A stretch of 55,877 bases of DNA from Candidatus Fraserbacteria bacterium (GTDB lineage: Bacteria > Bipolaricaulota > Bipolaricaulia > RBG-16-55-9). The stretch is taken from positions 1-55,877 of the forward strand of contig JBBIPG010000006.1 of NCBI GenBank assembly GCA_037442925.1, read 5' to 3'. Shown here one piece after another: positions 9,286 to 40,068 of the stretch. How positions within the stretch are numbered: position 1 is the stretch's first letter; each line of letters starts with the position of its first letter. Both the position numbers and the translations under genes were made by a program. Below the pieces are notes generated by a model. It was not told where the DNA came from. It made no database searches and saw nothing but the letters and a program-made list of their open reading frames with translations.

Positions 9286-9303
9286 CACACGGCCAGCGAA
9301 TCG

Positions 9304-13661: not shown

Positions 13662-13694
13662 ACTCGCACCGACGAGGGAGGAGGATGTGTAGTT

Positions 13695-14018: not shown

Positions 14019-14025
14019 AGAGCTC

Positions 14026-14607: not shown

Positions 14608-14608
14608 A

Positions 14609-15691: not shown

Positions 15692-15999
15692 AACCTGTGA
15701 TTGTCGCCGCAAGCGATCTGGTCGATGGATTCCGGCTTGCCGGGATTCCCGTCTTTGAGCTCAATGAAGAGCGCAATGTGCCTGAGATCATTCAAGCGAT
15801 CTTGCAGATGCCGGACGCAGGCATCGTTCTAGTTGATGAGCGCTACATGGAGCACTTTGAGAAGGCGTTTGCGGGGCGAGACTTGCCCATGGTGGCCTCG
15901 TTCCCTGCCGAAGAGGTTCAACGCGAAGAATCGTACATGGATGAACTGACGCTGCGCTATCTAGGACAGAAGATCCATGTGGAGGGAGAGAGCGAATGA
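15688..15999 (+). CDS. ntpF: V/A-type ATP synthase subunit F
   Basis: 103 aa, 'GFRLAG', 'GIVLVDE'. Confidence 0.9.
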   Translation: MKPVIVAASDLVDGFRLAGIPVFELNEERNVPEIIQAILQMPDAGIVLVDERYMEHFEKAFAGRDLPMVASFPAEEVQREESYMDELTLRYLGQKIHVEGESE

Positions 16000-19364: not shown

Positions 19365-19378
19365 GGAAGGGATGAACC

Positions 19379-20782: not shown

Positions 20783-20788
20783 GCGACC

Positions 20789-22584: not shown

Positions 22585-23399
22585 ACGGGAAACCACGCCA
22601 CGTAATGGGCCTCCTGCCCATCTCCCTGCTTCTAGTTGTATTGTCTCCCCTGATTCTCATGCCCTTAGCTGCGATCTACATCTTTGCCGTCGGCGGTGGG
22701 TTGGATGCATTTGTCCGCGCGCTCAGCAACCCGGACGCTCAATTTGCCCTGCGCTTCTCCCTCCTGATCGCCTCTGCCACGGCCCTGATCAACGCGATCT
22801 TGGGGACCTTTGCGGCCTACGTCCTCTCGAAATACCGCTTTCGCGGACGAGAAGCGCTCACTGTGATCGTGAACCTGCCTGTGGCCATCCCCACCGTGGT
22901 GGTCGGCACCTCGCTGCTCTTGCTTTGGGGACCGATCGGGCTTCTCGGGCAACTTCTTGATCCGCTGGGCATCCAGCCGATGTTCGCTCCCATGGGCGTT
23001 CTGCTGGCTCATCTCTTCGTCACCTTCCCGTACATGCTTGGCGCCATCAAGCCGGTGCTTGACGAATTGGAAGTGACCTATGAAGAGGCTTCCTATACCA
23101 TCGGCGCCAATCGCTGGCAGACGTTTCGTTTCGTGCTCTTGCCAGCACTTCGCGGTGGGTTGTTCTCCGGAACCCTGCTCACCTTTGCCCACTCCTTGGG
23201 CGAATTTGGAGCCACTGTAATGGTGAGCGGCAACCTCCGACTACGCACACAGACGGCCCCCCTCTACATCTTCTCCCAGTTTGAGGCGGGCAACCTGGAA
23301 GCGGCCAACGCCGTCGCAGCCGTGCTGGCCACACTCTCGTTCGTGCTCTTCTTTGGCCTGCTCCGCTTCACCCAGTTGCGCCGGGAGAGGACGGCCTGA
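22581..23399 (+). CDS. cysT: Sulfate ABC transporter permease (CysT-like)
   Basis: 'LPVAIPTVVVG', 'FVTFPY', EAA loop 'EEASYTIGA', 'SLGEFGA'. Confidence 0.88.
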   Translation: MNGKPRHVMGLLPISLLLVVLSPLILMPLAAIYIFAVGGGLDAFVRALSNPDAQFALRFSLLIASATALINAILGTFAAYVLSKYRFRGREALTVIVNLPVAIPTVVVGTSLLLLWGPIGLLGQLLDPLGIQPMFAPMGVLLAHLFVTFPYMLGAIKPVLDELEVTYEEASYTIGANRWQTFRFVLLPALRGGLFSGTLLTFAHSLGEFGATVMVSGNLRLRTQTAPLYIFSQFEAGNLEAANAVAAVLATLSFVLFFGLLRFTQLRRERTA

Positions 23400-25491: not shown

Positions 25492-26451
25492 GTGAGGAAC
25501 AACAAAACGGTTCGGTTTTCCATCATCGTCCTGGCCTCGCTTTTCACAGCGATTACGGCGCTTGCCATCTACCTTCTCACGGTAGGCTTGGAACAGACCT
25601 TCACCGGCAGCGTCGCATGGCTTGCCCATTCCTTTGCGGATGAGGTTGCTCATCACACGGCAATGGCCAGTCAAGATGAGCAGACTTTGCAACAAGAATT
25701 AACGAACTGGGCAGAGAAAGTGGTCCAGGAGTATCTGCTTTACGCCCAAGTCGTCAAAGGTGGAAAAACTCTGGCAGAGGCCAGGGCCCCTCAGGCAATC
25801 AATCTGAAACTGGACGCGGAAACTCTCTCTTCGGAGATGTCTGTCACCAAGGGACGCCTAGCGGATGGGGTGCCGTACTTGGATATGCTCAAAGCGCTGG
25901 AGACGCCTGATGGAAGTGCCAATTCAGAAAGCTATCTACGCATAGGGGTCTCTCTGGCGCGGGTCAGTTCGGCGATTCAGATGGGGGCATTGATCCTCGC
26001 GCTTGCTGGCCTGATGGGCATCTTCCTCGGCGCTCTCCTGATGCTCCGTCTGAGCAAGGTCATGGCGGCACGAGAGTGGCAGCCGGCGACTGCCCTTGAG
26101 TTGGCACAGGCAAGTGCTGGGGTTGCTGACAACGGGCAGGGCAGGGACAACTCCCTCTGGCAGGTTGGCCAGTTGTTGATTGACGATCGCCGCAAAGAGG
26201 TGCGGATCAGCGGTCGCAGTGCCAAGCTGACTCCTCGAGAATACGCGGTGTTGAAGGTGTTAGCCTCTGAGCCCCAGAGGGTCTTCGCGGATCAAGAGAT
26301 CATCGCTCAGGTCTGGCCGGAGAATTCCTTGGCCTCCGCCGATGATGTCCGAAAATACATCCGGTTCTTGAGAAAAAAGCTGGAAGAAGACCCCACGCGT
26401 CCCCAGGTCATCGTAACCATCAAGGGTTTCGGCTATAAGCTCCAAGCCTAG
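25492..26451 (+). CDS. Membrane-anchored regulator: TM, extracytoplasmic domain, TM, then an OmpR/PhoB winged-helix DNA-binding domain
   Basis: Two hydrophobic helices; C-terminal 'LTPREYAVLKVL...VW...IRFLRKKLEEDP..PQVIVTIKGFGYKL'; no receiver domain. Confidence 0.85.
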   Translation: MRNNKTVRFSIIVLASLFTAITALAIYLLTVGLEQTFTGSVAWLAHSFADEVAHHTAMASQDEQTLQQELTNWAEKVVQEYLLYAQVVKGGKTLAEARAPQAINLKLDAETLSSEMSVTKGRLADGVPYLDMLKALETPDGSANSESYLRIGVSLARVSSAIQMGALILALAGLMGIFLGALLMLRLSKVMAAREWQPATALELAQASAGVADNGQGRDNSLWQVGQLLIDDRRKEVRISGRSAKLTPREYAVLKVLASEPQRVFADQEIIAQVWPENSLASADDVRKYIRFLRKKLEEDPTRPQVIVTIKGFGYKLQA

Positions 26452-26492: not shown

Positions 26493-26562
26493 TTCCCCCT
26501 GCCTTCCCTGGACTTTCCCCGCGGTAGCATCGTATTCCTAGTGTCGAAGATCTAAAGATCCT
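26493..26562 (+). promoter_or_regulatory. Candidate operator region: 11-bp-phased direct repeats plus a palindrome
   Basis: TTCCC at 26493, 26504 and 26515; TAGCAT at 26525; AAGATCT-AA-AGATCCT at 26547-26562. Confidence 0.5.
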
Positions 26563-26575
26563 AGAGTGATGAAAA

Positions 26576-27028
26576 GTGATCTATTCTAACGCCTGCGAGT
26601 ATGCGATTCGTGCGCTGACTCATCTGGCCTTACATCCGCAGGAGAAGCTGTGCAAGCAGATCGCAGCGAGTGAGGGGGTTCCCCCTTATTTCTTAAGCAA
26701 GATCCTGCACGTCTTGGTACGGGCCGGCCTATTGGAATCGACACCGGGGCCCAACGGCGGCTTTACGCTGGCTCGAATACCTGAAGAAATCGCGCTCTAT
26801 GAAATCAAGGCGGTGATTGACGGCGATCAAGATCTGTACGAGTGCGCGGCGGGCTTAGAACAGTGCTCCGACGAAAGCCCCTGCCCGCTCCATGAGAGCT
26901 GGAAGCCTCTGCGCCTACAGATCCAGCAGTATCTGCGCGCGACCACTTTGGCAGATCTGGCAGTAGCTGTACTAAACAAGCGGAACTATGCGAAATCAGA
27001 CAATGAGAAAGCAGGTGAAAGAGTATGA
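26576..27028 (+). CDS. Rrf2-family Fe-S transcriptional regulator
   Basis: 'EYAIRAL', 'FLSKIL..LVRAGLL.S..GPNGGFTLAR', and three Cys 'C-x6-C-x5-CPLH'. Confidence 0.93.
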   Translation: MIYSNACEYAIRALTHLALHPQEKLCKQIAASEGVPPYFLSKILHVLVRAGLLESTPGPNGGFTLARIPEEIALYEIKAVIDGDQDLYECAAGLEQCSDESPCPLHESWKPLRLQIQQYLRATTLADLAVAVLNKRNYAKSDNEKAGERV

Positions 27029-28194
27029 CGAAACGAGCGTTCGCCGCGTCGTCCTCTGACGCATCTCTCACCCGAAGGGCGTTTCTCCGATGGGGCTTGG
27101 CGACGGGGATGGCTGGGCTGATGGCCGGTGGATTCGCGCGCTGGGTCGGCGGTCGTGAGGTGAGCGAACCCCAAGTGCTCGTCGGCGATGTGCTGGGCTT
27201 TGCACTAAAGAGCGACGACTGGTCGGGAGATTTCGGGTTCGTGACCTTCCGGCTACAACTGGGCTTCTACAATGGCAAATTCGCTTACTTCATCCGCACC
27301 GATTGCTCCGATCGCGGTTTCGCTAAAGAGAACGGCCTGGTCTTCGTACCGCGCCTGCGGCACGCCTTGACTGTCCGCGGGGAGAAAGGAGAGAAGGCCG
27401 TCGGAGATATCTATCTCTTTGCTGAGGGCATTGTCACTTCGTCAGGCTACCAGCCACTTCCGGTCTTGAGCAGCGTCCCCGGCCAGTCTGATTACAGCCC
27501 ACTCTTTCGAGTCCACTATATCACCAGTGCACAAATCCCTGAACTGCTCGTCTCCAAACGAGCAATCGAGGCGAGTGTGCGAGTCGGGGAAGCCAAGGTT
27601 GAGACGACAGATATCGTGGTCAACTATCCCGTAGTCCGCTGGCCGATGATGACCTCCCCGCCTGGGAGCTCGCGCCTTCAGTTTGAGGGCTACACCGAGC
27701 TACCTCACGACACCGAACTCGAAGAATATCTGGGAGGCGGGCAGCTGATCGGCCCCGTTGATCTTCTCAAGCAGACGGTGACGTTTAAGCTCCAGAAGTG
27801 CTTCCCCAACTTCCGCTACATCGTCACCGACACCTCGATGGCGATGGGTGCTCAGATGATGCATATCGCCTACTCGCCGGGCACGGCACTCATTCATCAG
27901 CAGGCGTCCCGCGCTATGGCGCGGGTTTTTGTGTTTGGCAACGGCATCTCAGGCGGAGGGCCGATGGGCTTTCAGTCAAGCCTCATGGACCCGCCGGTAG
28001 GCCGAGTTGCTTGGTCGCCGCTATGGGATCACTTCACCGTGCTCTGGCAAGAGCCAAGCAGAGCGGTGCTCATCGAGGAACTCGGTGAACTCAACGGGCG
28101 GCTAGCAGCTGGAGAGCTTCAGCTTTTCAACGGGACACCAATGACTCATCCACAGGGGTTTGTTGTGAACTGCGCCGTTCCGGTGGAGTCGTAA
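27025..28194 (+). CDS. Tat-exported protein of unknown function with two internal repeats
   Basis: Twin-arginine 'TRRAFL'; duplicated motifs YSPLFRVH/WSPLWDHF and VVNYPV/VVNCAVP. Confidence 0.75.
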   Translation: MTKRAFAASSSDASLTRRAFLRWGLATGMAGLMAGGFARWVGGREVSEPQVLVGDVLGFALKSDDWSGDFGFVTFRLQLGFYNGKFAYFIRTDCSDRGFAKENGLVFVPRLRHALTVRGEKGEKAVGDIYLFAEGIVTSSGYQPLPVLSSVPGQSDYSPLFRVHYITSAQIPELLVSKRAIEASVRVGEAKVETTDIVVNYPVVRWPMMTSPPGSSRLQFEGYTELPHDTELEEYLGGGQLIGPVDLLKQTVTFKLQKCFPNFRYIVTDTSMAMGAQMMHIAYSPGTALIHQQASRAMARVFVFGNGISGGGPMGFQSSLMDPPVGRVAWSPLWDHFTVLWQEPSRAVLIEELGELNGRLAAGELQLFNGTPMTHPQGFVVNCAVPVES

Positions 28195-28245
28195 GAGGTT
28201 ACGAGTGATCAGAAACCAAACAACGCAAAAAGGAGGTGAAAGACG

Positions 28246-28869
28246 ATGACCAAACGAATCCTCAAACTAACGGTGGTGTTTGTCGTGGTCGGCCTTGCTG
28301 TCCTAGCGGCCTTCGTCGCCACCAACACCTGGAACTCACAGGCGACGGCCCAAACGCAGAAGGAGTTTCAGATGGTCGCCGTCGAATGGAAGACGACGAT
28401 CAGCAAGCCCTCCCCGTATGACCCCATTAACGATCGAGGGGAGCACCCTGTCGGTACAGGCCAGGCAAGAAACGAGATCAACCACTACGCCTGGGACCCG
28501 TCCTTCATTGTCGTCAATAAGGGTGATAAGGTCGTGCTGAAAATCCACGGTGTCAACGGAGACGTGCACGACATTGACATCGCGGGCGTTGACTTCACGA
28601 TCACCGGCCGCACAGGAATCGACGGCAAGGGCAAAGCGCCGATTGCCGCCAAACCTGAGGTCTTCACGCGTGGCGAGGAGATCACCGTCGAGTTTACTGC
28701 CACGGACGCCGGCCTCTTCGAGATCCTGTGCTCCATTCACGACGAGGCCTATGCCACGGCGGCCCGACCGGAGCTAAAGGACGACGGCGGAGTGACCCTA
28801 GACTCGGCGAAGAAGGTGGGCGACGCTGTCAAGGGCCCCATGATTGGGTATCTGTTGGTGCTGCCGTAG
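28246..28869 (+). CDS. Exported cupredoxin-fold protein with an atypical ligand loop
   Basis: Signal/TM helix, 'IVVNKGDKVVLKI', 'VHDI', 'GLFEILCSIH', 'MIGYLLV'; strong AAGGAGGTG RBS. Confidence 0.8.
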   Translation: MTKRILKLTVVFVVVGLAVLAAFVATNTWNSQATAQTQKEFQMVAVEWKTTISKPSPYDPINDRGEHPVGTGQARNEINHYAWDPSFIVVNKGDKVVLKIHGVNGDVHDIDIAGVDFTITGRTGIDGKGKAPIAAKPEVFTRGEEITVEFTATDAGLFEILCSIHDEAYATAARPELKDDGGVTLDSAKKVGDAVKGPMIGYLLVLP

Positions 28870-28887
28870 TCAGCACCAGATCAGAGT

Positions 28888-28922
28888 TGGGGAAGGGGAG
28901 AGGGAGGTGGTCCCCTTCCCCA
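28888..28922 (+). other. Intra-operon 12-bp perfect hairpin without a U-tract
   Basis: TGGGGAAGGGGA (28888-28899) / TCCCCTTCCCCA (28911-28922). Confidence 0.7.
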
Positions 28923-28953
28923 CCCTACATCTTGAGAGAAGAAGGGGTTTGAA

Positions 28954-29502
28954 ATGAATCGCATTCCGGCTGCGGTCTCGACTTTAGTGATTCTTACGCT
29001 CACTGTAGCCCTCATGAGCTGGATGTTCAGCAAAATCGCCGAGTATCCAGGCCTGCCCCGTGATGTCTCTCAGGGACTACCAGCTTGGTTTACGGCTCTA
29101 CAAGCCGTTTCTCAGCCACTCGCAGCAGGAACGCCAACGAATGAAAGCTCTAGTTCGAGTTCAACAGGAGCATCGGAGCAACTTTCAAGCAACTACGTGC
29201 AGGTGACGGGTGATGAAATCGAGATCGTGCTCAAGGAATACAAGCTGGTGCCGGACAAGATCATGGTTGGGCCGGGTAAGGTCACCTTTGTGCTGCGCAA
29301 TGAAGGACGGTTTTCGCACGACTTCCACATTGAAGGCCCTGGCGTGGATGTGCGAGCAGCCAAGTTCGGCCCCGGCCGCTCCATAAGAGTGGAAGTCACT
29401 TTGCAGGAAGGCGAGTACAAGATCAGCTGCCCACTCTCTAATCACGACGAGCGGGGCATGCATGGGACGGTGCTGGTGACGTTCAAGTCTGAAGGGGACT
29501 AA
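28954..29502 (+). CDS. Membrane-anchored cupredoxin (type 1 Cu)
   Basis: 'HDFHIEG' and 'CPLSNHDERGM' (C-x4-H-x4-M). Confidence 0.88.
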   Translation: MNRIPAAVSTLVILTLTVALMSWMFSKIAEYPGLPRDVSQGLPAWFTALQAVSQPLAAGTPTNESSSSSSTGASEQLSSNYVQVTGDEIEIVLKEYKLVPDKIMVGPGKVTFVLRNEGRFSHDFHIEGPGVDVRAAKFGPGRSIRVEVTLQEGEYKISCPLSNHDERGMHGTVLVTFKSEGD

Positions 29503-29503
29503 A

Positions 29504-30913
29504 ATGCCTATAGACATCCCGATTCTCGGGGCCCGCACCGCTTTGTGGCTGGTCGCCCAACTCCATCTCTTTTTTGCGGCCTTCGTGCTCGGCGCGCCCA
29601 TCTTCATCGTGATCAGCGAATATCTGGGCCTACGCACGAAAGATCAAAGATATGAGCGTCTGGCGCAAGAGACGATGAAAGTTGTGGCTATTGCCTACTC
29701 GCTCACGGCCATCTTTGGTGTGCTGTTTGCGTTCGTGCTCATGGGGCCCTACCAGTCCCTCGCGAATTATTTATTTAAGACCCTCTATCCCGTCTGGGCC
29801 CTGTACGGACTCTTCATTCTTTTGGAGACCGTCTGCATGTATCTCTACTGGTACACCTGGGAGCCTCTGAGCCAAACAGTGACGCAAAAGTGGGTGCACA
29901 TCGGCCTCGGCGTTCTTTTGAACATTCTGGGCACCGTCGTAATGCTGCTCATGAACGCCGTGGGTGGCTTCATGAATACTCCACCCAAGGAGATCGAGGC
30001 GGCAGGCCTTTGGGAGATGGTGAACAACGCCGCCTGGTGGCCACTCAACCTGCACCGCTTTCTTGGCAACGTGACCTTCGGAGGATTTGTGGTTGCGCTC
30101 TTTGCCGCCTTCATGTTTTTGACATCCAGAAAAGACGAAGATAGAGAGTTCTACGACTGGATGGGCTATATTGGCAATCTCATTGGCGTGGGCACTCTCA
30201 TGACGATGCCCCTGGCGGGTTATATTCTCTCGAAAGAGTTTTTTCTCTATGATGCGCAACTGGCCACCTTCATGATGGCCGATAAACTCTCGGGCTACTT
30301 CGTCATGCAAGGGCTTTTGGTTGTGCTGCTCTTTCTGGGGGCCAATTTTTATATGTGGCTTTCCATGCAGCGCATTGAGAGAGGTCTTCGTTTCGAGCCG
30401 CACATGAAGGCCATCTTCACCGTGCTCTTGGCCGGAGGCATCATCTGGGTGGTGCCGCAGAACTTCTTTCCAGATCTTTTGGCCAAGCCCCCACCGGGGG
30501 CAAGCGAGCAAGCGCTCATTTTGCCCGAGCGCTTTGCATTTCTGGGCTTGATGGTCGCCAAGGCGCTGGCCGTGACAGCGATTATTATTATGACCTTCGT
30601 GACGTATTTGCTCTATCGGCGGGCGCGCGCCACGGGAAAAATCTTGTGGGGCCGCATCGACCCCATGGCTCAGTATGTGCTGATCTTCATTCCCGCTGTC
30701 GCCGTATATCTGATGGGATTGATGGGAGCCATTCGAGAACTCACCCGCATGGACTATCATATTTACGGCTTGGTCAAAGACGTGACGCCTTACTGGTATA
30801 CAGCGACGTTAGGCCATTCGTCCCTTATGGTCGCAATCGCGACGGTGCTCTTATTTGTGCTACTGGCGTTCATCTTTGGCGTGGGGTTTGTGATGGGGAG
30901 AACTCATGAGTGA
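29504..30913 (+). CDS. Cytochrome bd subunit I (CydA)-like membrane protein, non-canonical
   Basis: 'AQLHLFFAAFVLG', 'LETVCMYLYWY', 'NAVGGFMNTP', 'NLHRFLGN', 'MGAIRELTR'; about 10 hydrophobic segments. Confidence 0.85.
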   Translation: MPIDIPILGARTALWLVAQLHLFFAAFVLGAPIFIVISEYLGLRTKDQRYERLAQETMKVVAIAYSLTAIFGVLFAFVLMGPYQSLANYLFKTLYPVWALYGLFILLETVCMYLYWYTWEPLSQTVTQKWVHIGLGVLLNILGTVVMLLMNAVGGFMNTPPKEIEAAGLWEMVNNAAWWPLNLHRFLGNVTFGGFVVALFAAFMFLTSRKDEDREFYDWMGYIGNLIGVGTLMTMPLAGYILSKEFFLYDAQLATFMMADKLSGYFVMQGLLVVLLFLGANFYMWLSMQRIERGLRFEPHMKAIFTVLLAGGIIWVVPQNFFPDLLAKPPPGASEQALILPERFAFLGLMVAKALAVTAIIIMTFVTYLLYRRARATGKILWGRIDPMAQYVLIFIPAVAVYLMGLMGAIRELTRMDYHIYGLVKDVTPYWYTATLGHSSLMVAIATVLLFVLLAFIFGVGFVMGRTHE

Positions 30914-31661
30914 TCCTGGCAGGATCTCCACAGCGCCGAAGAGTCTGTGGCAACGCATCAGGGGCCCTGTGATTTTTGCTGTTGTTAGCTTGACTGTAAT
31001 TTGGGGCCTGCTGCCGCGCGTGCCCCAGAACTGGGGGATTCAGTTTGGTGTGCCATATCTCGTGTTCTTCAGCTTGGCCGTGCTCAGCGCCACTCTCTTT
31101 TTCATTCTGCTCAATTGGGGACCGATTCGTCAGCCCAGCTCGCCGGTGATGACATTTATGAGCATTTTGCTCGTCTATGTGGCCACGGTCGGAGGGTTGG
31201 TGGCCTTCGGGCTTTGGTACTACCCCCAGTTTGAGATCCCCCAGTCTGCTGTTGAAACGGGTAAAGAACAAGAAGCAGAGATCGCCGCCGAAGAGCGAGG
31301 TAAAGAAGTCTTCTTGAGCCCCACGTTCGCCTGCTTTGCGTGTCACACCATTGTAGCGTTAGGCATCCGCGGTGGGCAGCGGGGGCCGGATCTCTCGGAT
31401 GTGGGCAGACAAGCAGAAACTCGCAAGACCGGCATGTCCGCCGAAGAGTATCTGAAAGAATCCCTTGTGAACCCGTGGGCCTGCTTTACGCCGCTACCCG
31501 GCAGTGAGCTCGCCGAGTGCCAGCCCGCAGCTGACGCCGCGACGACGTATCCCCAGTTAATGCCTCCTGGCTACGGAGATCGCCTAAGCGAAGAGCAACT
31601 GAAAGATCTTATCGCGTTCTTAAAGAGCCTGAAGGGAGTGCAAAGTGGCACAGAACGATAG
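30906..31661 (+). CDS. Membrane-anchored monoheme cytochrome c
   Basis: Three N-terminal TM helices, CFACH, 'GPDL', distal Met 'LMPP', 'LSEEQLKDLIAFL'. Confidence 0.9.
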   Translation: MSDPGRISTAPKSLWQRIRGPVIFAVVSLTVIWGLLPRVPQNWGIQFGVPYLVFFSLAVLSATLFFILLNWGPIRQPSSPVMTFMSILLVYVATVGGLVAFGLWYYPQFEIPQSAVETGKEQEAEIAAEERGKEVFLSPTFACFACHTIVALGIRGGQRGPDLSDVGRQAETRKTGMSAEEYLKESLVNPWACFTPLPGSELAECQPAADAATTYPQLMPPGYGDRLSEEQLKDLIAFLKSLKGVQSGTER

Positions 31662-32082
31662 AAGGGCAAAGGCAGAGAGTCCTCGCGACATCGCCTGGGG
31701 AGCAGTCTGGCTGGGCTATGGGATCGCTCTAGCAGGGACGCTGATCGCAGGAGCTTGGGGGCTCTTCTACGCGAATGAAGGCCTCTGGTGGGTGGCTGAG
31801 CGAGGCATGGTTTTTCTGTTCATCGGGGGCTTGGTAGCAGGAGTTGCGGCAAGGACTGGTGAGCCCTTACATGGTGCCTTCATCGCTGCCTTCTACTTTG
31901 GAACGGCTACGATCGTGATCTTCGTCGGGGAGTTTTTGGGTGTCTTGCCCGATCCATTGCCGGGTCTGCCGCGTGGAGATTCCACGTTCTTCTTCGTCTG
32001 GCCGCTGGGGCAACTTGTGGCAGCGACATTGGGAGTCGTGATCGGGGGGAATGCTTTCGGATTGCGGAAAGAGGTCCAATGA
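31645..32082 (+). CDS. Small four-TM membrane protein
   Basis: Hydrophobic 145 aa, overlapping both neighbours. Confidence 0.7.
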   Translation: MAQNDRRAKAESPRDIAWGAVWLGYGIALAGTLIAGAWGLFYANEGLWWVAERGMVFLFIGGLVAGVAARTGEPLHGAFIAAFYFGTATIVIFVGEFLGVLPDPLPGLPRGDSTFFFVWPLGQLVAATLGVVIGGNAFGLRKEVQ

Positions 32083-33236
32083 GAACCTTTAACGCCTTCG
32101 TGTTCTTCTTGGCCATGACCACGGGAGTGATGGCCTGGCAGACGGCTTCGGCTCAAGCAGAGGGCTTCGAGATCTGGGTCGCTAACCAGGGACTAGACAA
32201 AGTTCAGGTCCTTGACGGACGGACTTTTCAAATCATCGCTGAGATGGAGTTAGATCAAGATGGCCAACCGGCCACGAGCAAGCCCCATATGCTCCTGTTC
32301 AGCCCTAACTATCGTTATGCGTACGTGGCCAATGTGGGCACGGGCACCGTGACAATCATCGATGCGAAGACGCAAAAGATCGTAGCGCAAATCCCGACAG
32401 GCAAGGGCGCTCACGCCCCGGTGCCCTCTCCCAATGGCCAACGGGTCTTCGTGGCCAACCCGGGGGACAACACCGTGACGGAGATCCTGACGGACACGCG
32501 CCGCGGGATCTTCCAAGTGGGGCGGACAATCCCCACGGGAACTCGGCCCATTTGTTTGATGTTCACGGCTGATTCTAAAAAAGCGTACGTGAGCTTAGGG
32601 GGCGATCCCAAGGCCGAAGACCTGACTAAGACCGGCGGCATTGAGGTCATTGACGTTGATCAGGGAAAGGTCGTCAAGCGCTTTGAGAATACGGGCAAGA
32701 ACGGCTGCGGGGTCATACGCTCGAAAGACGGGCGGAAGATGTTTGCCAACGTTGGAGAACCTATCGACAAATGGATGGCCTTCGACACGAAGACCGACGA
32801 GATGCTCCACGTGGGCAGCACTGAGGTCAAAGACGCCCATGCCATGTGGATCAGCCCTAACGGGAAGGAACTGTGGATCTTCGGGCGCCAAGAGAATCAA
32901 GTTGCGATCTTCAGTACGGCCACCTATGCGAAGATGGGCACGTTTTCTGTAGGGGATAGGCCGGACATCGCAGACGCTACTCCCGATGGCAAGCTGCTCT
33001 TTGCAGCGCTGCGCGGCCAGGCGGTCACGGGAGATCCACATGCGCATTCGGGATCAACGGCGGGTGTGGCTGTCATCGAGGTGGCCAATAAGAAGCAAGT
33101 TCAGACAATTTCGCTCGCGGGCGATCCTCACGGTTTAGCGGTACGGCCTCTGCGAGCGGCGGGGCTGTCGGCCTCTGTGTTGTTGCTTCTGGCGTTGGTG
33201 GGCCTGCTGGTGGCCCTGTTGGTCCTCAAACGGTGA
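32079..33236 (+). CDS. Exported YVTN/YncE-type beta-propeller with a C-terminal membrane anchor
   Basis: Signal peptide, repeats 'YAYVAN', 'RVFVAN', 'KAYVS', and a hydrophobic C-terminal tail. Confidence 0.85.
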   Translation: MRTFNAFVFFLAMTTGVMAWQTASAQAEGFEIWVANQGLDKVQVLDGRTFQIIAEMELDQDGQPATSKPHMLLFSPNYRYAYVANVGTGTVTIIDAKTQKIVAQIPTGKGAHAPVPSPNGQRVFVANPGDNTVTEILTDTRRGIFQVGRTIPTGTRPICLMFTADSKKAYVSLGGDPKAEDLTKTGGIEVIDVDQGKVVKRFENTGKNGCGVIRSKDGRKMFANVGEPIDKWMAFDTKTDEMLHVGSTEVKDAHAMWISPNGKELWIFGRQENQVAIFSTATYAKMGTFSVGDRPDIADATPDGKLLFAALRGQAVTGDPHAHSGSTAGVAVIEVANKKQVQTISLAGDPHGLAVRPLRAAGLSASVLLLLALVGLLVALLVLKR

Positions 33237-33282
33237 AGGCGTGAAAAGAAGGTTTGCTGAGCATTCATGGAGGTGAGCTGCA

Positions 33283-33666
33283 ATGCCTGACATCCGGTTA
33301 ATCCTGGCTTTAGTGGTGGCGTCCCTCTTGCTCTTTATCGTTGTTCCTCAGTTTCTCCAACCTGCGCAAGAGGTCAACGTGAGTCTTAAAGAATGGGAGA
33401 TCGGTCCAAACGCGATTACCGTCAACACTGGCAAGATCAAGTTTGTCGTGACCAACGATGGAACGGTCGCTCACGGCTTCGAGATCGAAGGCATGATTAA
33501 GGGGCGGAAGTTCGAGCGAGAGATCGAGCCGTTCGATCCGGGGAAGGCGAAGACGCTGGTCGTCGAATTGCCACCCGGAGAGTACGAGGTCTACTGCCCT
33601 GTCGCTGGGCATAAGGAGAAAGGGATGGAAGGGACTCTAGTGGTTCAAGCACCTAGACCGTACTGA
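33283..33666 (+). CDS. Cupredoxin (type 1 Cu)
   Basis: 'HGFEIEG' and 'YCPVAGHKEKGM'. Confidence 0.9.
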   Translation: MPDIRLILALVVASLLLFIVVPQFLQPAQEVNVSLKEWEIGPNAITVNTGKIKFVVTNDGTVAHGFEIEGMIKGRKFEREIEPFDPGKAKTLVVELPPGEYEVYCPVAGHKEKGMEGTLVVQAPRPY

Positions 33667-33677
33667 AAGAGGCACAA

Positions 33678-34568
33678 ATGAAGACATACCAAGAGATCGC
33701 CGGCGACGGCGGGTCGAACATTCTCAACCAAGTGAAGGAGCAGCAAATGCGCCTGCAAGCGCGCCTGGCGCAGATCACGCACAAGATCGCGATCATGAGC
33801 GGCAAGGGCGGCGTGGGCAAGAGCGTAGTTACAGTGAACTTGGCCTCGAGCTTAGCACTGCAGGGCCATAACGTGGGCGTTCTGGATGCGGACATCAACG
33901 GGCCTTCTGTTGCCAAGATGTTTGGAGTGCTGGGTCAGACCCTCAAGGTTGGCAAAAACGGAGTCGTCCCTGTCCTTGGACCCTTGGGGATCAAAATCAT
34001 CTCCATGGATCTCCTGCTGTCCCGAGATGAGGCGCCGGTGGTCTGGGATGCCCCAGCGCAGCAAGATCCCTTCGTCTGGCGTGGCACGATAGAAGTTAGC
34101 GCGCTTAGAGAATTTCTTACCGATACGGACTGGGGAAAATTAGATTTTCTTTTGATCGATCTCCCTCCGGGCCCAGAGCGGTTGCCCAATCTCCCTGGCC
34201 TGCTTCCCGAATTGCACACAATCGTCGTGACCATCCCCTCGGAGGTCGCGCAGCTCACGGTGAAGAGATCCATCGCTTTAGCCCAGCAGCTGAAGGCAAA
34301 GCTTCTGGGACTGATAGAGAACATGGCGGGCTATCTCTGCCAGAAGTGCGGCGCGTTAGGAGAGTTTTCCGGCGGTGCGGAGAATACCGCGAAGGCCCTG
34401 GGAGTGCCCCTCTTGGGGAAGATCCCCTTCGATCCGCGCATCGCTCGTTGTTCCGATCAGGGTGTCCCCTTTGTGATCGAGCATCAAGATACAGAGACCG
34501 CCAGCGTGTTCAAGCAAATGGCTCAGAAGATCAAAAGAAGTGTTGCTTCAGGGAGAAGTGAGCGATGA
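33678..34568 (+). CDS. mrp: Mrp/NBP35 (ApbC) Fe-S carrier ATPase
   Basis: 'SGKGGVGKS', 'LDADINGPS', 'DLPPG', 'ENMAGYLCQKCG'. Confidence 0.92.
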   Translation: MKTYQEIAGDGGSNILNQVKEQQMRLQARLAQITHKIAIMSGKGGVGKSVVTVNLASSLALQGHNVGVLDADINGPSVAKMFGVLGQTLKVGKNGVVPVLGPLGIKIISMDLLLSRDEAPVVWDAPAQQDPFVWRGTIEVSALREFLTDTDWGKLDFLLIDLPPGPERLPNLPGLLPELHTIVVTIPSEVAQLTVKRSIALAQQLKAKLLGLIENMAGYLCQKCGALGEFSGGAENTAKALGVPLLGKIPFDPRIARCSDQGVPFVIEHQDTETASVFKQMAQKIKRSVASGRSER

Positions 34569-34969
34569 AGTTCTTGTGTGTGATGTGCGATGAAGCTATG
34601 AAGTTCGTGGCAGCGGAAGGCCCAGAGGAGGGCTCGCTCTCTGTCATCTTTCGTTGTCCGCGCTGCAGTCATAAAGTTGCCCTTCTGACCAATCCCTGGG
34701 AGACCCAATTGGTTCGCAGTTTGGGGGTGGTGATCGGTGGGCGGACGGTTTCCCCAGAGTCTTTGGAGTTAGTCCGGACGACCCTGGCCGACAGCAAGCT
34801 TCTTTGGACGGAGGAAGCAGAGCAGCGCCTAGAGCGGGTGCCCGAGTTCGCCCGGCCCAGGGCGCGCCACAGCATCGAGCGCTATGCCCGAGAGCATGGC
34901 TATCGCGAGATCACTATGCACGTGGTGGATGAGGCGAGAAAAGCCATCGAGATACCAGGAATAACGTGA
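34565..34969 (+). CDS. CxxC...CxxC protein with a C-terminal PCP_red (BchB C-terminal-like) domain
   Basis: CVMC and CPRC; 'WTEEAEQRLERVPEFAR......IERYARE.G...IT'. Confidence 0.8.
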   Translation: MKFLCVMCDEAMKFVAAEGPEEGSLSVIFRCPRCSHKVALLTNPWETQLVRSLGVVIGGRTVSPESLELVRTTLADSKLLWTEEAEQRLERVPEFARPRARHSIERYAREHGYREITMHVVDEARKAIEIPGIT

Positions 34970-34981
34970 GAGGTGATTGAG

Positions 34982-37033
34982 ATGGGATTCAGAAGCAAGC
35001 ACGGCTTGAAGATGCTTTTCACCCTTTTGATCGCAGCGTTATCTGCTTTGCAAGTTAATCAGGCAAGTACGCAACACATTATAGTAGAATGGACTCAGAT
35101 GCCTAGTCCCCCAGCCGGTGGGGCCTGGTCCATCTCTATAAGCCCCTCACATCCTGAGGTCCTCTATGCAGCCACCCGTGATGCCAACGTCTGGAAGAGC
35201 ACTAACGCTGGGCAAGCATGGCAACAGCTGGGGGAAAGGGGGTTCGGCGCCCACATCTTCGCCAACATCGCCATTCATCCCCGTGATCCCGAGGTAATCT
35301 ACGCGAGCAATGGGCTGCTCCACAAATCGACCGACGGTGGGAAGACCTGGCGGTCCCTAGGGATCGGCAGTGGGGAGTCTATGGGAGTAATATCGATCGC
35401 TTTTGCCCCATCTAACCCTCAAATCATCTATGCCGGTGACGACCTAGGACTAGCCTTCAAGTCAAGTGATGGGGGATTGAGCTGGAAAGCGTTTCCCGTA
35501 ACTCAGGCACCTGTCATAGAGCTCGTCGTCGATTCAGCTAATCCCGATGTAGCATATGCTGGTACGGGAGCCGGAGGGGTCTTCAAAACCACCGATGGAG
35601 GCCGAAGTTGGACTCGCGTCTTCAGCCAACCCATCTCTAGCGAACCTCAGGGACGACGCAGTCTGGTGATAGACCCCGCAGATCCCCGACATCTCTACGT
35701 GGGCACCCCCTCCGGAATCTATGAGAGCCGGGACAGCGGCATGGAGTGGCAACGCCTCTCCACGGCTCCTCGTGACCCTCTGAGCCTGGTCATCGCCTCC
35801 TCCCGGACCCTTTATGCCTCGACGGAGGAGGGAGAGGTCTTCAAGAGCACCGACGGGGGTCGGACCTGGCAGTCGACCGGCTACCAGCCAGCGCGCTGGG
35901 GGAGCGATCCCTATCTCGCCGTCCACCCCAATGATCCAGACGTGGTGTATGTGGGCTCTACGAAAGGGTTTGCGAAAAGTATTGATGGGGGCAGAACTTG
36001 GACCACCATCAATGAAGGGTTTGCCGTGGACGACTTCTTCACCTTGGCTCTAGATCCGCTCGATCCTGACACCATCTATGCTGGCCTCTTCTGGACTATG
36101 GGAATGTATGAATCCACGGACGGGGGCCGGAATTGGGCGTGGTTACCAGAGTATATGCACTCCCAAGGGGGGCACGAGCACTACCCAATGCAGATTGCGA
36201 TCGACCCCAGAAACCCTCAGATCGTCTACGTAACTGGAGCCTACGGCCTGAGGAAGACAACGGACAGGGGCAGAACGTGGCAAGACGTGCGCGGGCCGTT
36301 CTTTGGCCATCACGTGCATGGGCTGGCTCTGAGCCCCACGGATCCGGATGTGCTCTACGTGGGTAGTGCCCCCGGGGAGACCAGCCTGCCGGGTTCGCAT
36401 CTTTACCAGAGCAGGGACGCTGGACGTACCTGGGCAGAACTCGATCAACCTCTTCGCGAACGCGACGTCAACTTCTATCAGATCGCGGTGGCCCCCTCCG
36501 ATCCCCGCGTGATCTATGTGGCTGTGAACTCTCATGCTTTCGTGCTCCCTCATGAACATCCAGGGCGTGGCGGGGTGCTCAAGAGCACGGACGGTGGCCA
36601 GACCTGGGTCCTTGTGAATAATGGCTTAAGAAAACCGGAGGTCTTCGCCGTAGCTGTGGATCCCCGCCAGGCTGAGATCGCCTACGCCGGCACGGATGAA
36701 GGCCTCTACAAGACGACCGATGGGAGCCGCAACTGGCAGAGGCTGGAGGGGCTCCCTAGGGATGCCGTCCATGCTATAGCGCTTCATCCAACCAACCCGG
36801 ACATGATTGCAGTGGCCTTTGGGGAGAACCAGTGTGGGGGCTGCTGGACGAGCCCCAGTGGCCAAGGGATCTACCTCAGTAGGGATGGTGGGGGCAGCTG
36901 GGCGTGGGTCACTCCAGGGTTCACCCAAAGACAACAGGTGGTGCTGGACGTCGTCTATAGTCCCCAGGGCGTTCTTTATGCTGGTACGGACGACGGTTTC
37001 TTCAAAGGGATTCTGCGGAAGGAGGGAAGATAG
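34982..37033 (+). CDS. Exported BNR/Asp-box (VPS10-like) beta-propeller protein
   Basis: More than 10 S/T-x-D-G-G-x-T/S-W repeats and a signal peptide; start set at the ATG behind GAGGTG. Confidence 0.88.
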   Translation: MGFRSKHGLKMLFTLLIAALSALQVNQASTQHIIVEWTQMPSPPAGGAWSISISPSHPEVLYAATRDANVWKSTNAGQAWQQLGERGFGAHIFANIAIHPRDPEVIYASNGLLHKSTDGGKTWRSLGIGSGESMGVISIAFAPSNPQIIYAGDDLGLAFKSSDGGLSWKAFPVTQAPVIELVVDSANPDVAYAGTGAGGVFKTTDGGRSWTRVFSQPISSEPQGRRSLVIDPADPRHLYVGTPSGIYESRDSGMEWQRLSTAPRDPLSLVIASSRTLYASTEEGEVFKSTDGGRTWQSTGYQPARWGSDPYLAVHPNDPDVVYVGSTKGFAKSIDGGRTWTTINEGFAVDDFFTLALDPLDPDTIYAGLFWTMGMYESTDGGRNWAWLPEYMHSQGGHEHYPMQIAIDPRNPQIVYVTGAYGLRKTTDRGRTWQDVRGPFFGHHVHGLALSPTDPDVLYVGSAPGETSLPGSHLYQSRDAGRTWAELDQPLRERDVNFYQIAVAPSDPRVIYVAVNSHAFVLPHEHPGRGGVLKSTDGGQTWVLVNNGLRKPEVFAVAVDPRQAEIAYAGTDEGLYKTTDGSRNWQRLEGLPRDAVHAIALHPTNPDMIAVAFGENQCGGCWTSPSGQGIYLSRDGGGSWAWVTPGFTQRQQVVLDVVYSPQGVLYAGTDDGFFKGILRKEGR

Positions 37034-37054
37034 CACATTCTGGACACGAGGCAG

Positions 37055-38335
37055 TTGAATCGTCGGGCGTTCCAACTGACCATCGTCTCCTGGAACGTCA
37101 CACAAGCCTGTAATCTGCGCTGCTCTCATTGTTACTTAGCAGCTGGAACGCCTGCTCCGCGTGAGTTGTCAACGGAAGAGGGTTTTTCATTGATTAAGCA
37201 GCTTAGGGCTCTGGGGACACAACTTCTGATTCTGACCGGAGGCGAGCCCCTGCTGCGCCGCGATCTAGTTGCGCTGGCCTACCATGCTTCGGAACGCGGC
37301 TTGATGGTTGTGCTGGGCACCAACGGGACCCTTCTCAACGAGAAGACGGCCCAGAAGCTCAGAGCAAGCGGCGTGCAGGGCGTGGGGATCAGCTTAGACT
37401 CCCTCGATCCCCAAAAGCACGACACCTTCCGGGGGCTCACGGGTGCTTGGAAGAAAGCCGTGCGCGCCATCGAAGCGTGCGGCAAACAGAGCTTGGAAGT
37501 GGCTGTGCAGACGAGCGTGCTGCCCATGAACTATGAAGAGATTCCCCGGCTCATCGACTTCGCTTATGAGAAGGGCGCGCGGGCGTTTAACGCGTATTTT
37601 CTTGTCTGCACCGGCCGTGGAGAAAAGCTCACGGACATTACGCCCCAGCAATACGAAGCGTTGCTCGAATATCTGATAGACACGCAAGCGCGATATTCGC
37701 ATGAGAAGCGAAACTTCCTCGTGCGGGCCAAGTGTGCCCCGCACGTCAAGCGCTTGGCATACGAACGCTTGAACAGCGATAACTCACCTCTAGCAGGGGC
37801 CGTGGGGCTTCTGGCCAGCGTCGGCTGCCCCGCGGGCACCAGTTATTTGAGAATTGGGCCCGAGGGCGATGTCACCCCTTGCCCCTATTTGCCGTTCGTG
37901 TTGGGCAACGTACGCCGAGATTCGTTGTCTCAGATCTGGGGAAGCTCAGAGATCTTGCAGAAGTTGAGGGCTCTGGAGCTCTATGGTCGCTGCGGGACCT
38001 GTGACTTCAAGGAGCTGTGCGTCGGCTGTCGCGCACGGGCCTTCGCGTTGACGGGCAATTTACTGGGTGAAGATCCCTGGTGTACGTATCAACCGGCAGG
38101 CAACACCCAACTTGCAAGTCAGCAAACTGTGGCGTGGTCTCAAGAGGCACTGGCGCGTTTAGAAGGAATTCCATCATTCGTTCGCCAGCGCGTTAAGCAA
38201 GCAACGGAGGAGTATGCACGGGCTCGCGGATTCTCGCGGATCACTCCGGAGCTTTTGACGGAGTTGCGGGCCACTTCTCTTAAAAGAACAGTTGCCCAAG
38301 AGTTGTCAGAGAGAGGAGGAGATGGGCGTGTATAA
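37055..38335 (+). CDS. Radical SAM/SPASM enzyme (NirJ/AhbC/AhbD-like) with a C-terminal PCP_red domain
   Basis: CNLRCSHC, TGGEPLLR, 'LVCTGRG', SPASM Cys cluster 'CGTCDFKELCVGCRARA...EDPWC', C-terminal 'WSQEALARLEGIPSFVR'. Confidence 0.9.
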   Translation: MNRRAFQLTIVSWNVTQACNLRCSHCYLAAGTPAPRELSTEEGFSLIKQLRALGTQLLILTGGEPLLRRDLVALAYHASERGLMVVLGTNGTLLNEKTAQKLRASGVQGVGISLDSLDPQKHDTFRGLTGAWKKAVRAIEACGKQSLEVAVQTSVLPMNYEEIPRLIDFAYEKGARAFNAYFLVCTGRGEKLTDITPQQYEALLEYLIDTQARYSHEKRNFLVRAKCAPHVKRLAYERLNSDNSPLAGAVGLLASVGCPAGTSYLRIGPEGDVTPCPYLPFVLGNVRRDSLSQIWGSSEILQKLRALELYGRCGTCDFKELCVGCRARAFALTGNLLGEDPWCTYQPAGNTQLASQQTVAWSQEALARLEGIPSFVRQRVKQATEEYARARGFSRITPELLTELRATSLKRTVAQELSERGGDGRV

Positions 38336-39344
38336 GCATCTTCTGGTGGCCATCGACAATTCGAGATATGCCGAGCAGGCTGCTGTCTTGGCTGTGGAAC
38401 TGGCACGCGCATGTAAGGCGCATCTCACCGGCGTGCACGTGACCAACGCTGGACTGCATACATACGCCTTTCACCTATTGGAAGGCACCCTGCCCGAGCG
38501 CTACCAGAGCGAAGAAGTCTTGCAACAGCAACGGGAGATTCACGAGGATCTGATCCGGCGAGGGCTCTCCCTCATTAGTGACTCGTATTTAGCGCAGCTG
38601 CGAAGACGGGCTGAGGCTACCGAAGTCCCCTGTGTGACGAAGGTCTTAGAGGGTCGGCACTACGAGGTGCTCTCCCGAGAAATCATGGAAGCGGAGTATG
38701 ATCTAGCCGTCTTCGGACAACTGGGTTTAGGTGCTTGTGGACGTTCAGCGCTCGGTGGTACCGTCGAGCGCGTGGCCCGGCGCATCCGAAAGGATCTGCT
38801 AGTCGTGAATTCGAAGGTCAAGCGAAGCTCCCTCGAGGACGGGAAAATCCTCGTCGCCGTGGACGGCTCAGAGTGCTCCTTTTGGGCATTGCGTAAAGCG
38901 ATCGTCTTAGCGAAGAGATTCCAAGCTCAGCTACACGCAGTGCACGTCTTCGATCCGGATTTTCACCGTACGATCTTTGCTGAATTAGTAGGGGTGCTAA
39001 GCAAGGAAGCCGCGGAAGTCTTCGATTCTGAAGGCCAACAGGAACTCCACGACAAAGTAATCGACAAGGGGTTGGAACAGGTCGGGCAAAGATGCTTGCG
39101 CAGTTGTGAGTTGGCGGCGGAGCACGGCGATATCCCAATTCTGACGATGCTTTTGCGCGGTAAATTCTTCGAAAAGATCGTGGAGGCGGCTGAAGTTCTG
39201 GAGCCATCGCTGGTCGTCGTGGGAATGTGGGGTCGACACGCACTAGGACCGCAGCCTCAATTGGGCAGCACCGCGGAGAACGTGTTGCGCCTAGCGCCTT
39301 GTAGCGTGTTGATTGTTAGCACCGATGTGTCGGACAGGCGGTGA
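38322..39344 (+). CDS. Tandem universal stress protein
   Basis: Two USP domains ('LLVAIDNS', 'ILVAVDGSECS', 'LGSTAENVLRLAPCSVLIV'); ATG behind GGAGG. Confidence 0.9.
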   Translation: MGVYKHLLVAIDNSRYAEQAAVLAVELARACKAHLTGVHVTNAGLHTYAFHLLEGTLPERYQSEEVLQQQREIHEDLIRRGLSLISDSYLAQLRRRAEATEVPCVTKVLEGRHYEVLSREIMEAEYDLAVFGQLGLGACGRSALGGTVERVARRIRKDLLVVNSKVKRSSLEDGKILVAVDGSECSFWALRKAIVLAKRFQAQLHAVHVFDPDFHRTIFAELVGVLSKEAAEVFDSEGQQELHDKVIDKGLEQVGQRCLRSCELAAEHGDIPILTMLLRGKFFEKIVEAAEVLEPSLVVVGMWGRHALGPQPQLGSTAENVLRLAPCSVLIVSTDVSDRR

Positions 39345-39393
39345 AAGAGCTCCTACCGGAGAAGATGTGGCGCAAGATGCTCAAGGAGGAGTC

Positions 39394-40068
39394 ATGATTG
39401 CAGTCAATGCCCTAGAGCAGCGAGTAGAGCTAGTTAGTACCAATCAACGGAAATCCTGGCCCTTAGTAAAACTTCCGGTAAAGTTCGTCGAGTGGCAAAT
39501 TCAAAGCCGCCGGGAACTGTTCGACAAACTCTTGCGCAGGGAACAGGTGCGTTTTTTGGCAAGCCATCTGCCTGTGCTGGCAACACTCAACGCCAATGGG
39601 GTTATTAACCTGGCCAACAAGGGTGTGGGGCTTGTACCCAAAGAGGAACACCTAACGCACTACATTGGATTGTTCAGGTACATGCTCTCTGAGGGTCGAA
39701 GTCGGCCTTGGGATGAAACGCTGGAAGTGCGCGTTGAGGTCGCGAGCGAACTACTCGAACACCCCGAGCACATTGACCCGTATCGGCTGGGCTCGCTGGA
39801 GATCTTCGAAGGCCAGACTTTTCAAAATATACAAGAAAACCCACAGGTGGCGTTGCTGTTTACCGGTGCGGGGCCGGAGCATCTAAGTTTTCAGCTTGAC
39901 AGTATCGCTCAAATTTTGAAACCTGGCCAGCAGGTCTACGAGTTCCTGCAGCTGAGCCGTTTGCTCTTTGAATACGAGCGCTTCCACATCGCTCAACCCG
40001 CGTATCCATGGGCCTATCAGCTCTGGGTACATGGGGTGCAGGAGAAGACACCACATCGAAGAACCTAA
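39394..40068 (+). CDS. Hypothetical protein, possibly a pyridoxamine-oxidase-like FMN split barrel
   Basis: 'QTFQNIQENPQVALLF' resembles PNPOx-family motifs; AAGGAGG RBS. Confidence 0.6.
   Translation: MIAVNALEQRVELVSTNQRKSWPLVKLPVKFVEWQIQSRRELFDKLLRREQVRFLASHLPVLATLNANGVINLANKGVGLVPKEEHLTHYIGLFRYMLSEGRSRPWDETLEVRVEVASELLEHPEHIDPYRLGSLEIFEGQTFQNIQENPQVALLFTGAGPEHLSFQLDSIAQILKPGQQVYEFLQLSRLLFEYERFHIAQPAYPWAYQLWVHGVQEKTPHRRT

Follow-up and report, generated by a model that had tools for sequence, protein, structure and literature searches.

The 55,877-nucleotide stretch of DNA analysed here (the window; contig JBBIPG010000006.1 of a Candidatus Fraserbacteria bacterium) carries, at positions 26576-40068, a block of 15 open reading frames (ORFs) in a single orientation, inside which a conserved system of about ten genes was identified. 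By alignment and predicted fold, the CydA-like gene of this system is a member of the named OR-N ('bd-like') family, its product being a CydA-fold subunit with haem ligands and with neither a quinol site nor a CydB partner. We lean towards the reading that the operon encodes a stand-alone OR-N1-like bd oxidoreductase together with its assembly cassette, i.e. an O2 reductase that would be fed by cupredoxins and cytochrome c. OR-N enzymes are the presumed terminal oxidases of nitrite oxidisers, their composition and activity being described as without experimental confirmation (PMC10839748, PMC12342949).

Layout and conservation of the operon

The window is contig C6 of a 2.07 Mb, 94% complete genome (G000). 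Within the block, the longest ORFs overlap at 7 of 14 junctions and the widest gap is 84 bp, in agreement with an earlier, sequence-based annotation of this region (the original prediction), which described 15 contiguous, co-oriented and frequently overlapping genes. The originally predicted inventory of the encoded proteins was confirmed with Pfam and NCBIfam, apart from the corrections given below, with Pfam calls for Rrf2, cupredoxins, CydA (N-terminal part only), cytochrome c, propellers, Mrp/NUBPL, PCP_red, radical SAM with SPASM and PCP_red, tandem USP and, weakly, PNPOx. Ribosome-binding sites favour starts at 38322 for the USP gene and 39394 for the split-barrel gene, as used in the following list.

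26576..27028, + strand: Rrf2 regulator of the Fe-S type, three Cys, PF02082; local, not core
27025..28194, + strand: Tat-signal DUF7482 protein, PF24298; local, not core
28246..28869, + strand: CupA, exported cupredoxin, His...Cys-x2-His...Met motif common with homologues; core
28954..29502, + strand: CupB, membrane-anchored type-1 cupredoxin, H...C-x4-H-x4-M, PF13473; core
29504..30913, + strand: CydA-like OR-N subunit, 469 amino acids, 11 long helices (model, alignment, tree); core
30906..31661, + strand: membrane mono-haem cytochrome c, three N-terminal helices, CFACH, Met219; core
31645..32082, + strand: 4-helix membrane protein, DPLPGLPRGDSTFFFVWP motif, predicted clade-specific subunit; core
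32079..33236, + strand: secreted YVTN 7-blade propeller, C-terminal membrane anchor, conserved His/Asp; local insert
33283..33666, + strand: CupC, small type-1 cupredoxin, PF13473; variable third cupredoxin
33678..34568, + strand: Mrp/NBP35 Fe-S carrier ATPase, PF10609; optional cassette member
34565..34969, + strand: zinc-ribbon-PCP_red protein (Zn-PCP); frequent cassette member
34973..37033, + strand: VPS10/BNR propeller protein, PF15902; local insert
37055..38335, + strand: radical SAM/SPASM-PCP_red enzyme, AhbD/NirJ2-like, of a separate clade; core cassette
38322..39344, + strand: tandem USP, six near-invariant His, putative ATP-binding glycine motif; longest ORF from 38292
39394..40068, + strand: PNPOx-like split-barrel protein, weak PF01243; optional cassette member; longest ORF from 39313

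For the gene-neighbourhood comparison, 74 loci (sets of 19 and 52, together with L033, L072 and L074) were pooled and three with a CydA identity below 50% were dropped, leaving 71 loci, the counts of which are not independent because many of them are near-duplicates; each gene was scored only at loci whose contig reaches far enough. Together with OR-N, the genes for CupA (42/42 loci), CupB (48/49), the membrane cytochrome c (51/53), the 4-helix protein (47/48), the tandem USP (21/21) and the radical SAM-PCP_red enzyme (16/16) were shown to be co-conserved. Zn-PCP was present in 20 of 30 loci and Mrp in 17 of 34, while HemY, which is absent from the window, comes directly after the cassette at nine of 13 loci. 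The split-barrel gene was found in 3 of the 13 loci with 6.5 kb of downstream DNA, and occurs in L006, L017, L033, L072 and L174.

These counts favour the prediction that the bd-like protein is partnered by a membrane cytochrome c and by cupredoxins, along with a co-inherited maturation cassette, but not the inclusion of four further genes. The YVTN propeller was found in 0/34 and the VPS10 propeller in 0/16 related loci, DUF7482 in 1/30 and Rrf2 in 1 of 28 with enough upstream DNA; these four genes are local additions, and the notion of all 15 genes as one system was rejected. The regulator itself varies: Betaproteobacteria have two-component genes that diverge from the operon, whereas those of Chloroflexota share its orientation.

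By its CydA-like gene, the closest relative (92% identity) is likewise labelled Ca. Fraserbacteria, and only 3 of 184 genomes of the host phylum carry an OR-N gene. Copies in Betaproteobacteria and one Acidobacteria record are 84-86% identical, and those in Chloroflexota 59-63%. Rarity in the host phylum combined with close copies in other phyla indicates horizontal spread, and points to the block being a horizontally mobile operon.

The OR-N subunit

The AlphaFold model of the OR-N protein (126 alignment rows; predicted local distance difference test, pLDDT, 93.8) contains 11 long helices, with ten predicted by hydropathy, and the top ten Foldseek matches are all CydA chains (TM-score 0.46-0.62). 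All 105 close homologues have H21, Y101, E108, H184, M350 and R415, and 95 of them also have E412. The marks of the cytochrome bd superfamily, a four-helix active-site core within a CydA-type fold and the conserved His19, are both present. Profile alignment placed OR-N residues on the Geobacillus His, E101/E108 and the AEVGRQPW motif, and H184 on His186, while E412/R415 align with Glu445/Arg448 in a weakly aligning segment. The Escherichia coli numbering of His186, Met393 and Glu445 is in part our assumption, as is the equivalence of M350 with Met393, which we take from position and motif.

The quinol motif QPAKLAAFE is replaced, with Lys252/Glu257 becoming Q252/M257, and Lys is not among the top residues of this site across the 105 homologues. 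CydB (PF02322) gave no match in the 94% complete host genome, with the control search positive in 9/14. The alignment, the fold and this search thus agree with the original prediction of a CydB-less bd-like protein lacking a quinol site. No second OR-N copy was found in G000, and G103 and G052 each hold a single copy as well. No CxxCH occurs within the CydA-like sequence, the cytochrome c being a separate gene. The protein carries the marks of OR-N, namely absence of a quinol site and of a haem c motif, the 6-residue Y101-x6-E108 spacing and YxYxY, and it matches Nitrospira-type paralogues with E values down to 1e-95.

The OR-N family was named in bioRxiv 10.1101/2021.01.16.426971, and PMC12342949 designates the NIDE0901 type as OR-N2 and its partner as OR-N1. 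The Nitrospira paralogues were assigned here from gene order against PMC6606698; among them, bd-like_1 is the best match of the window protein (42% over residues 2-456). A quick tree of 36 CydA-like proteins, with an unreliable root, separates the window clade (support 100, 14 rows) from the Nitrospira bd-like_2/3/4 clade (16 rows, support 99). In this proposed placement the window protein falls in a clade of its own, whose join to the bd-like_1 clade has no firm support either way. In long OR-N2-type proteins (L068, L069 and others), a second match to window residues about 347-463 was observed near the C-terminus, which suggests that part of the protein was duplicated internally and that the 14-helix form may have arisen in this way.

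Cupredoxins, cytochrome c and the 4-helix protein

Of the three cupredoxins originally predicted, CupB and CupC are supported by PF13473; CupA has no Pfam match, with only weak nitrosocyanin and L-NosZ (17 bits) matches, and was therefore assigned by its motif. CupA is no more than about 30-34% identical to its counterparts at loci where CydA is 84-92% identical, which suggests that it has been replaced or evolves fast. The CupC motif is of type 1 rather than CuA, and a third cupredoxin is found at other positions in L002, L015 and L072.

A hidden Markov model (HMM) of the membrane part of the cytochrome c, built with the target left out, matched among 31 loci only genes adjoining bd-like_1-type proteins and those of L018/L035, and the window cytochrome c is a homologue of the one located beside Nitrospira bd-like_1. 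Natural OR-N::cytochrome c fusions were observed among longer OR-N proteins (P0126, P0133, P0138 and P0166).

The 4-helix protein matched no Pfam family above cut-off, had no homologue in 31 other OR-N-related loci and retrieved only unnamed small membrane-protein clusters from the ESM Atlas. The co-folding analysis proposed for the CydA-like protein, the cytochrome c and this protein scored 0.76, compared with 0.00 for the best control, in a job that differs from the calibration and was run on our own alignments, with decoys that may not be membrane proteins. Across runs, at least 87% of contacts agreed, and pLDDT of the partner did not fall below 78; of the calibration pairs, 116/157 solved ones and 2/215 mismatched ones reach the mark applied. 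The modelled interface on OR-N comprises residues 236-244, 296-297 and 343-377, mainly helix 350-377, which supports packing of the 4-helix protein against the OR-N helix starting at Met350, and the protein is predicted to be a subunit specific to the window clade. Since this interface lies elsewhere, a role as CydB stand-in at the His19 face was rejected.

The maturation cassette

The distribution of the cassette was compared with that of OR-N in 81 Nitrospirota genomes, 27 of which carry OR-N (G268, with an E value of 1.6e-10, was not scored as such). The USP subfamily was detected in 27/27 OR-N genomes versus 1/54 others, and the radical SAM-PCP enzyme in 26/27 (not in G206, and partial at a contig end in G199) versus 1/54, the single other genome being G205 in both cases. 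Fisher P values for these contrasts overstate them, since related genomes are not independent. The profile does not merely reflect linkage, because in the Nitrospira-type genome G260 some 200 kb separate the USP/radical SAM pair from the closest bd-like cluster. OR-N and USP were also found in the same 4 of 261 genomes (one being the seed) of the betaproteobacterial order of G186, and in the host phylum the three OR-N genomes among 184 are likewise the three with USP. G185 possesses OR-N and no full USP match, its contig ending inside the USP gene.

Among 401 Chloroflexota genomes, USP was found in 33, versus three with N1/N2-type OR-N (E 1e-40). This set of 33 includes 14 inspected loci and two known operons (G567 and G663). 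Divergent CydA-like genes were located nearby at 13 of the 14 inspected loci (not at L198) and the radical SAM gene at none. The radical SAM enzyme is therefore not a universal OR-N factor, and since these loci keep CydA-like genes without it, USP is, by this distribution, the most general OR-N companion observed, with the radical SAM enzyme specific to the N1/N2 types.

In L188-L201, Chloroflexota USP-(PCP)n genes adjoin divergent CydA-like genes, mostly as pairs, and the scanned loci also contain Rieske/cytochrome b or ABC-2 transporter genes; the ABC-2 transporter may replace the radical SAM branch. An apparent USP-PCP::CydA fusion in L194 was dropped, as its junction cuts the PCP domain and the sequence looks off-frame. 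G186 holds two OR-N clusters (C10 and C61), each with its own USP and with HemY on both contigs, the C10 cluster following nap-like genes. In L077:1-11672 (Dehalococcoidia), OR-N, two cytochromes c, an NXR/pNAR-like DMSO-reductase type II beta/TorD/alpha/gamma set and USP-PCP form one operon.

Six His positions of the USP are almost invariant (60/60, 60/60, 62/62, 63/63, 62/63 and 63/63), and the protein carries a G-x2-G-x9-G motif that is presumably linked to ATP binding. Zn-PCP has an N-terminal CxxC...CxxC zinc ribbon and a homologue beside the Nitrospira bd-like_3/4 genes (E 3.9e-9). In the open-access literature, no paper was found that ties the USP/radical SAM pair to OR-N.

A reading in which the cassette only boosts ordinary haem b, HemY and an AhbD-like enzyme forming a coprohaem route that does not depend on O2, and neither a special haem nor a chaperone role being involved, is a serious contender, rated a little short of even, and would be compatible with the oxidase reading. 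It accounts for the best HMM matches of the radical SAM enzyme, NirJ2 (TIGR04055, 326 bits) and AhbD (TIGR04545, 308 bits), for the HemY gene adjoining the cassette and for the auxiliary-cluster motif CX2CX5CX20C, present in the enzyme and given as CX2CX5CX20-21C for AhbD in PMC10114771, which covers AhbD and HemW and states that an AhbD-like enzyme may replace ChdC anaerobically. However, both scores are below the cut-off of 500, and on TIGR04545 the clade scores 308-313 bits versus 448-453 for ordinary AhbD-like controls (also below 500). In the tree, 25 radical SAM-PCP rows stand apart from three ordinary AhbD-like rows with support 100. The enzyme coexists with an ordinary AhbD-like gene in seven genomes, and the cassette is present in G103 and G052 alongside ChdC and HemH. 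Furthermore, its distribution follows OR-N and not haem use, and OR-N5-like genes are accompanied by the USP half while the radical SAM gene is missing.

Electron path and alternative readings

In the favoured reading, the periplasmic cupredoxins would hand electrons to the membrane cytochrome c, from which they would reach first the low-spin haem (His184/Met350) and then the high-spin pair (His21, Glu412). At this pair O2 would be converted to water, Glu108 would admit the protons, and OR-N would act as a high-affinity or scavenging oxidase. The cytoplasmic, His-bearing USP may bind haem and hand it to OR-N, the radical SAM enzyme may make or tailor that haem, and Mrp may supply the radical SAM enzyme with Fe-S clusters; the PCP_red domains, common to several cassette proteins, may link these proteins to each other. 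We infer all of this chemistry; what the locus counts show is that CupA, CupB, the membrane cytochrome c, the 4-helix protein, the radical SAM enzyme and USP are tightly co-inherited, while the residues and the fold come from alignment and model, and the contact of the 4-helix protein is modelled.

A broader proposal, which we regard as tentative and rather doubtful, is that OR-N enzymes in general, including the presumed Nitrospira terminal oxidase and the anammox NXR bd-like subunit, need a dedicated and hitherto undescribed maturation system. In it, every subfamily would use a USP as haem chaperone with His ligands, and the N1/N2 types would in addition rely on a radical SAM-PCP_red enzyme making a non-protohaem. 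The window operon would then be the smallest complete kit, encoding a copper-protein-fed, single-CydA oxidase with a new 4-helix subunit.

Several observations weigh against the oxidase reading. The proton-channel residue E99 (E. coli; Geobacillus E101) is Tyr (Y101) in the window protein and in every N1/N2-type row. The Glu445 site is Glu in the window protein, in its relatives from the host phylum, in L018 and in the Chloroflexota rows, and Ser in the Betaproteobacteria/Acidobacteria rows and the Nitrospira types, so that the third haem ligand is not universal. O2 reduction has been shown for no OR-N enzyme according to PMC10839748, the role of Nitrospira bd-like_1 is given as unknown in PMC6606698, and PMC12342949 regards bd-like_1 as the presumed partner of OR-N2, a protein that the window operon does not encode. 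The host already has two haem-copper enzymes, and in its 94% complete genome HemH, ChdC, HemY, a true HemE and AhbA/B were not found, which leaves the substrate of the radical SAM enzyme unexplained. To these points are added the absence of the radical SAM gene from all inspected Chloroflexota USP loci, the relatedness and partial redundancy of the genomes and metagenome loci, many of the 71 loci being near-duplicates from similar populations, and the mismatch between the co-folding job and its calibration.

An alternative that we consider unlikely, though not negligible, is that OR-N serves as an electron conduit and not as a terminal reductase, connecting periplasmic copper/haem carriers with the membrane (e.g. 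for reverse transport to quinone) or anchoring a molybdenum (Mo) enzyme encoded elsewhere. Such a role has been proposed for the bd-like protein of NXR clusters (PMC3578206, PMC6606698), and would be in line with the loss of E99, with Ser at E412 in many relatives, with the Tat-type Mo enzymes of G000 and with related OR-N genes that accompany Mo enzymes (L077, L018) or lie beside nap-like genes (L075). The window protein nevertheless keeps all three canonical haem-ligand sets and E108, and lacks the quinol-binding residues. Among eight ORF-listed loci, only the more distant L018 has operon-linked Mo genes, with a possible Mo-enzyme fragment at the far upstream end of L005. The Pfam scan returned no Mo catalytic subunit, Fe-S subunit or TorD in the block, consistent with the original prediction that a molybdopterin catalytic subunit is missing from it; the six PF00384 genes of G000 are all on other contigs.

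Nitric oxide (NO) reduction by the complex, in respiration or detoxification, is improbable. The host is equipped as a denitrifier (NarGHI, NarK and a NirK-like gene), the Rrf2 protein has three Cys, and the Kuenenia cluster responds to the nitrite/NO regime (PMC6423088). Against this, Rrf2 accompanies the operon in just the one locus mentioned above, the Kuenenia cydA-like gene is down-regulated and not induced under NO, and one haem-copper enzyme already present in G000 has its active-site Tyr replaced by Gln, the substitution given for eNOR in PMC8756737.

A split N2O reductase made of the YVTN propeller and the adjacent cupredoxin, or a copper-handling function for the block, can be dismissed as very improbable: the L-NosZ matches (YVTN 49 bits, CupA 17 bits), the appearance of NosZ among generic propeller matches of YVTN and the conserved His of this protein hint at it, but the matches are far below the 700-bit cut-off of NF052460, YVTN has only four conserved His, compared with seven ligands of CuZ, and occurs in none of 34 related loci, and the CupC motif is of type 1, on which grounds the YVTN-CupC candidate was rejected. 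A search of the genome with PF18764 gave no match, nor did it in controls.

Host genome and local genes

Besides the denitrification genes and Tat-type Mo enzymes, G000 encodes an A-type-like haem-copper oxidase (GHPEVY). At G000:C25:11502-14341, a haem-copper family enzyme with HASQQIN (Gln for the cross-link Tyr) was observed beside cytochrome c and Rrf2 genes. Since O2 and NO reduction are thereby already covered, OR-N would represent an additional, perhaps high-affinity, route. The genome encodes many haemoproteins, and the absence of the haem genes listed above may reflect haem auxotrophy or a missing contig.

The surroundings of the block in the window are as follows.

358-9288, - strand: presumably a CRISPR-Cas-type effector set with helicase, then an AbiE-like toxin-antitoxin pair (labelled from N-terminal sequences)
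11679-21463: V/A-type ATPase operon (our assumption)
21568-25285: presumably a sulfate-type ABC transporter, its ATPase having C-terminal USP-like domains
25492..26451, + strand: membrane-anchored OmpR-type winged-helix regulator (Trans_reg_C), outside the span of the original prediction; lineage-level companion

Copies of the OmpR-type regulator, 80% and 65% identical, lie upstream of the operon in two host-phylum relatives (L002 and L033). A near-palindrome, AGATCTAAAGATCCT, was observed at 26546-26561, just 5' of the Rrf2 start, and is kept in L002; it is a possible autoregulatory box. A promoter and terminator scan performed at chance level.

With respect to the local genes, the two proteins described as His-rich propellers are indeed propellers, but His accounts for only 1.8% (YVTN) and 2.9% (VPS10) of residues. 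The YVTN family (83 matches, the named ones including Nitrosopumilaceae, Nitrospirota and Bacillaceae) has invariant E31, H70, D252, H254, D349 and H351 and a near-invariant H112, which suggests an unstudied metal or catalytic site. DUF7482 has 223 homologues, the named ones mostly from Chloroflexota; an ESM Atlas search with it yielded nothing useful, and no paper naming DUF7482 was found in the open-access literature.

Significance of the operon

Within about 13 kb, the operon unites an OR-N gene with its likely electron donors, with a predicted subunit and with those genes whose distribution follows OR-N across phyla. Being this compact and probably self-contained, it could be transferred to a laboratory host and its genes omitted one at a time. 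It thus represents a practical kit for testing what OR-N enzymes do, while the USP profile provides a marker gene for OR-N and a candidate assembly factor.

Comparison with known systems

With canonical CydAB quinol oxidases (qOR; 6rko, 5doq and 9r2g), the window protein shares the CydA fold (TM-score about 0.6) and the equivalents of His19, His186, Glu107 and Glu445/Arg448; it differs in lacking the Q-loop Lys/Glu and CydB, in the change of E99 to Tyr and in a putative electron entry from cytochrome c.

Closer is OR-N1, the usual partner of OR-N2 (CydAA'), for which 14 helices and about 580 amino acids have been reported. Like OR-N1 and Nitrospira bd-like_1, the window protein has no quinol site and no CxxCH, has Tyr at E99 and keeps E107, and, as with bd-like_1, a cognate membrane cytochrome c is encoded directly downstream. 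In contrast, it has 469 amino acids and 11 helices and retains the Glu445 site, which is Ser in the Nitrospira types. Its operon lacks an OR-N2 partner and complex III, and contains an extra 4-helix subunit, two cupredoxins and assembly genes.

In the NXR-associated clusters of Nitrospina, Kuenenia and Nitrospira, too, a bd-like oxidase is encoded alongside cytochromes c, a zinc-finger protein and a pair of cupredoxins (PMC3578206), and the cluster of Kuenenia (kustd1699-1713) includes UspA (kustd1706) and a cydA-like gene (kustd1712; PMC6423088). The window operon differs in the absence of NxrABC, TorD and an alternative NxrC, and its OR-N protein lies outside the 16-row clade of bd-like_2/3/4.

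The radical SAM enzyme shares with AhbD/NirJ2 (TIGR04545, TIGR04055) the radical SAM core, SPASM, the CX2CX5CX20C motif and linkage to HemY, and differs from them in scoring below both cut-offs, in its separate clade, its C-terminal PCP_red domain and its OR-N1/N2-bound distribution.

Given the named OR-N family, which is treated as uncharacterised or putative in PMC10839748, bioRxiv 10.1101/2021.11.15.468770 and PMC8115632, and the likeness to the NXR clusters (PMC3578206, PMC6423088), the term 'undescribed' used in the original prediction does not apply to the oxidase itself. What is new is a stand-alone variant of this known family with a dedicated accessory cassette, the latter being well supported.

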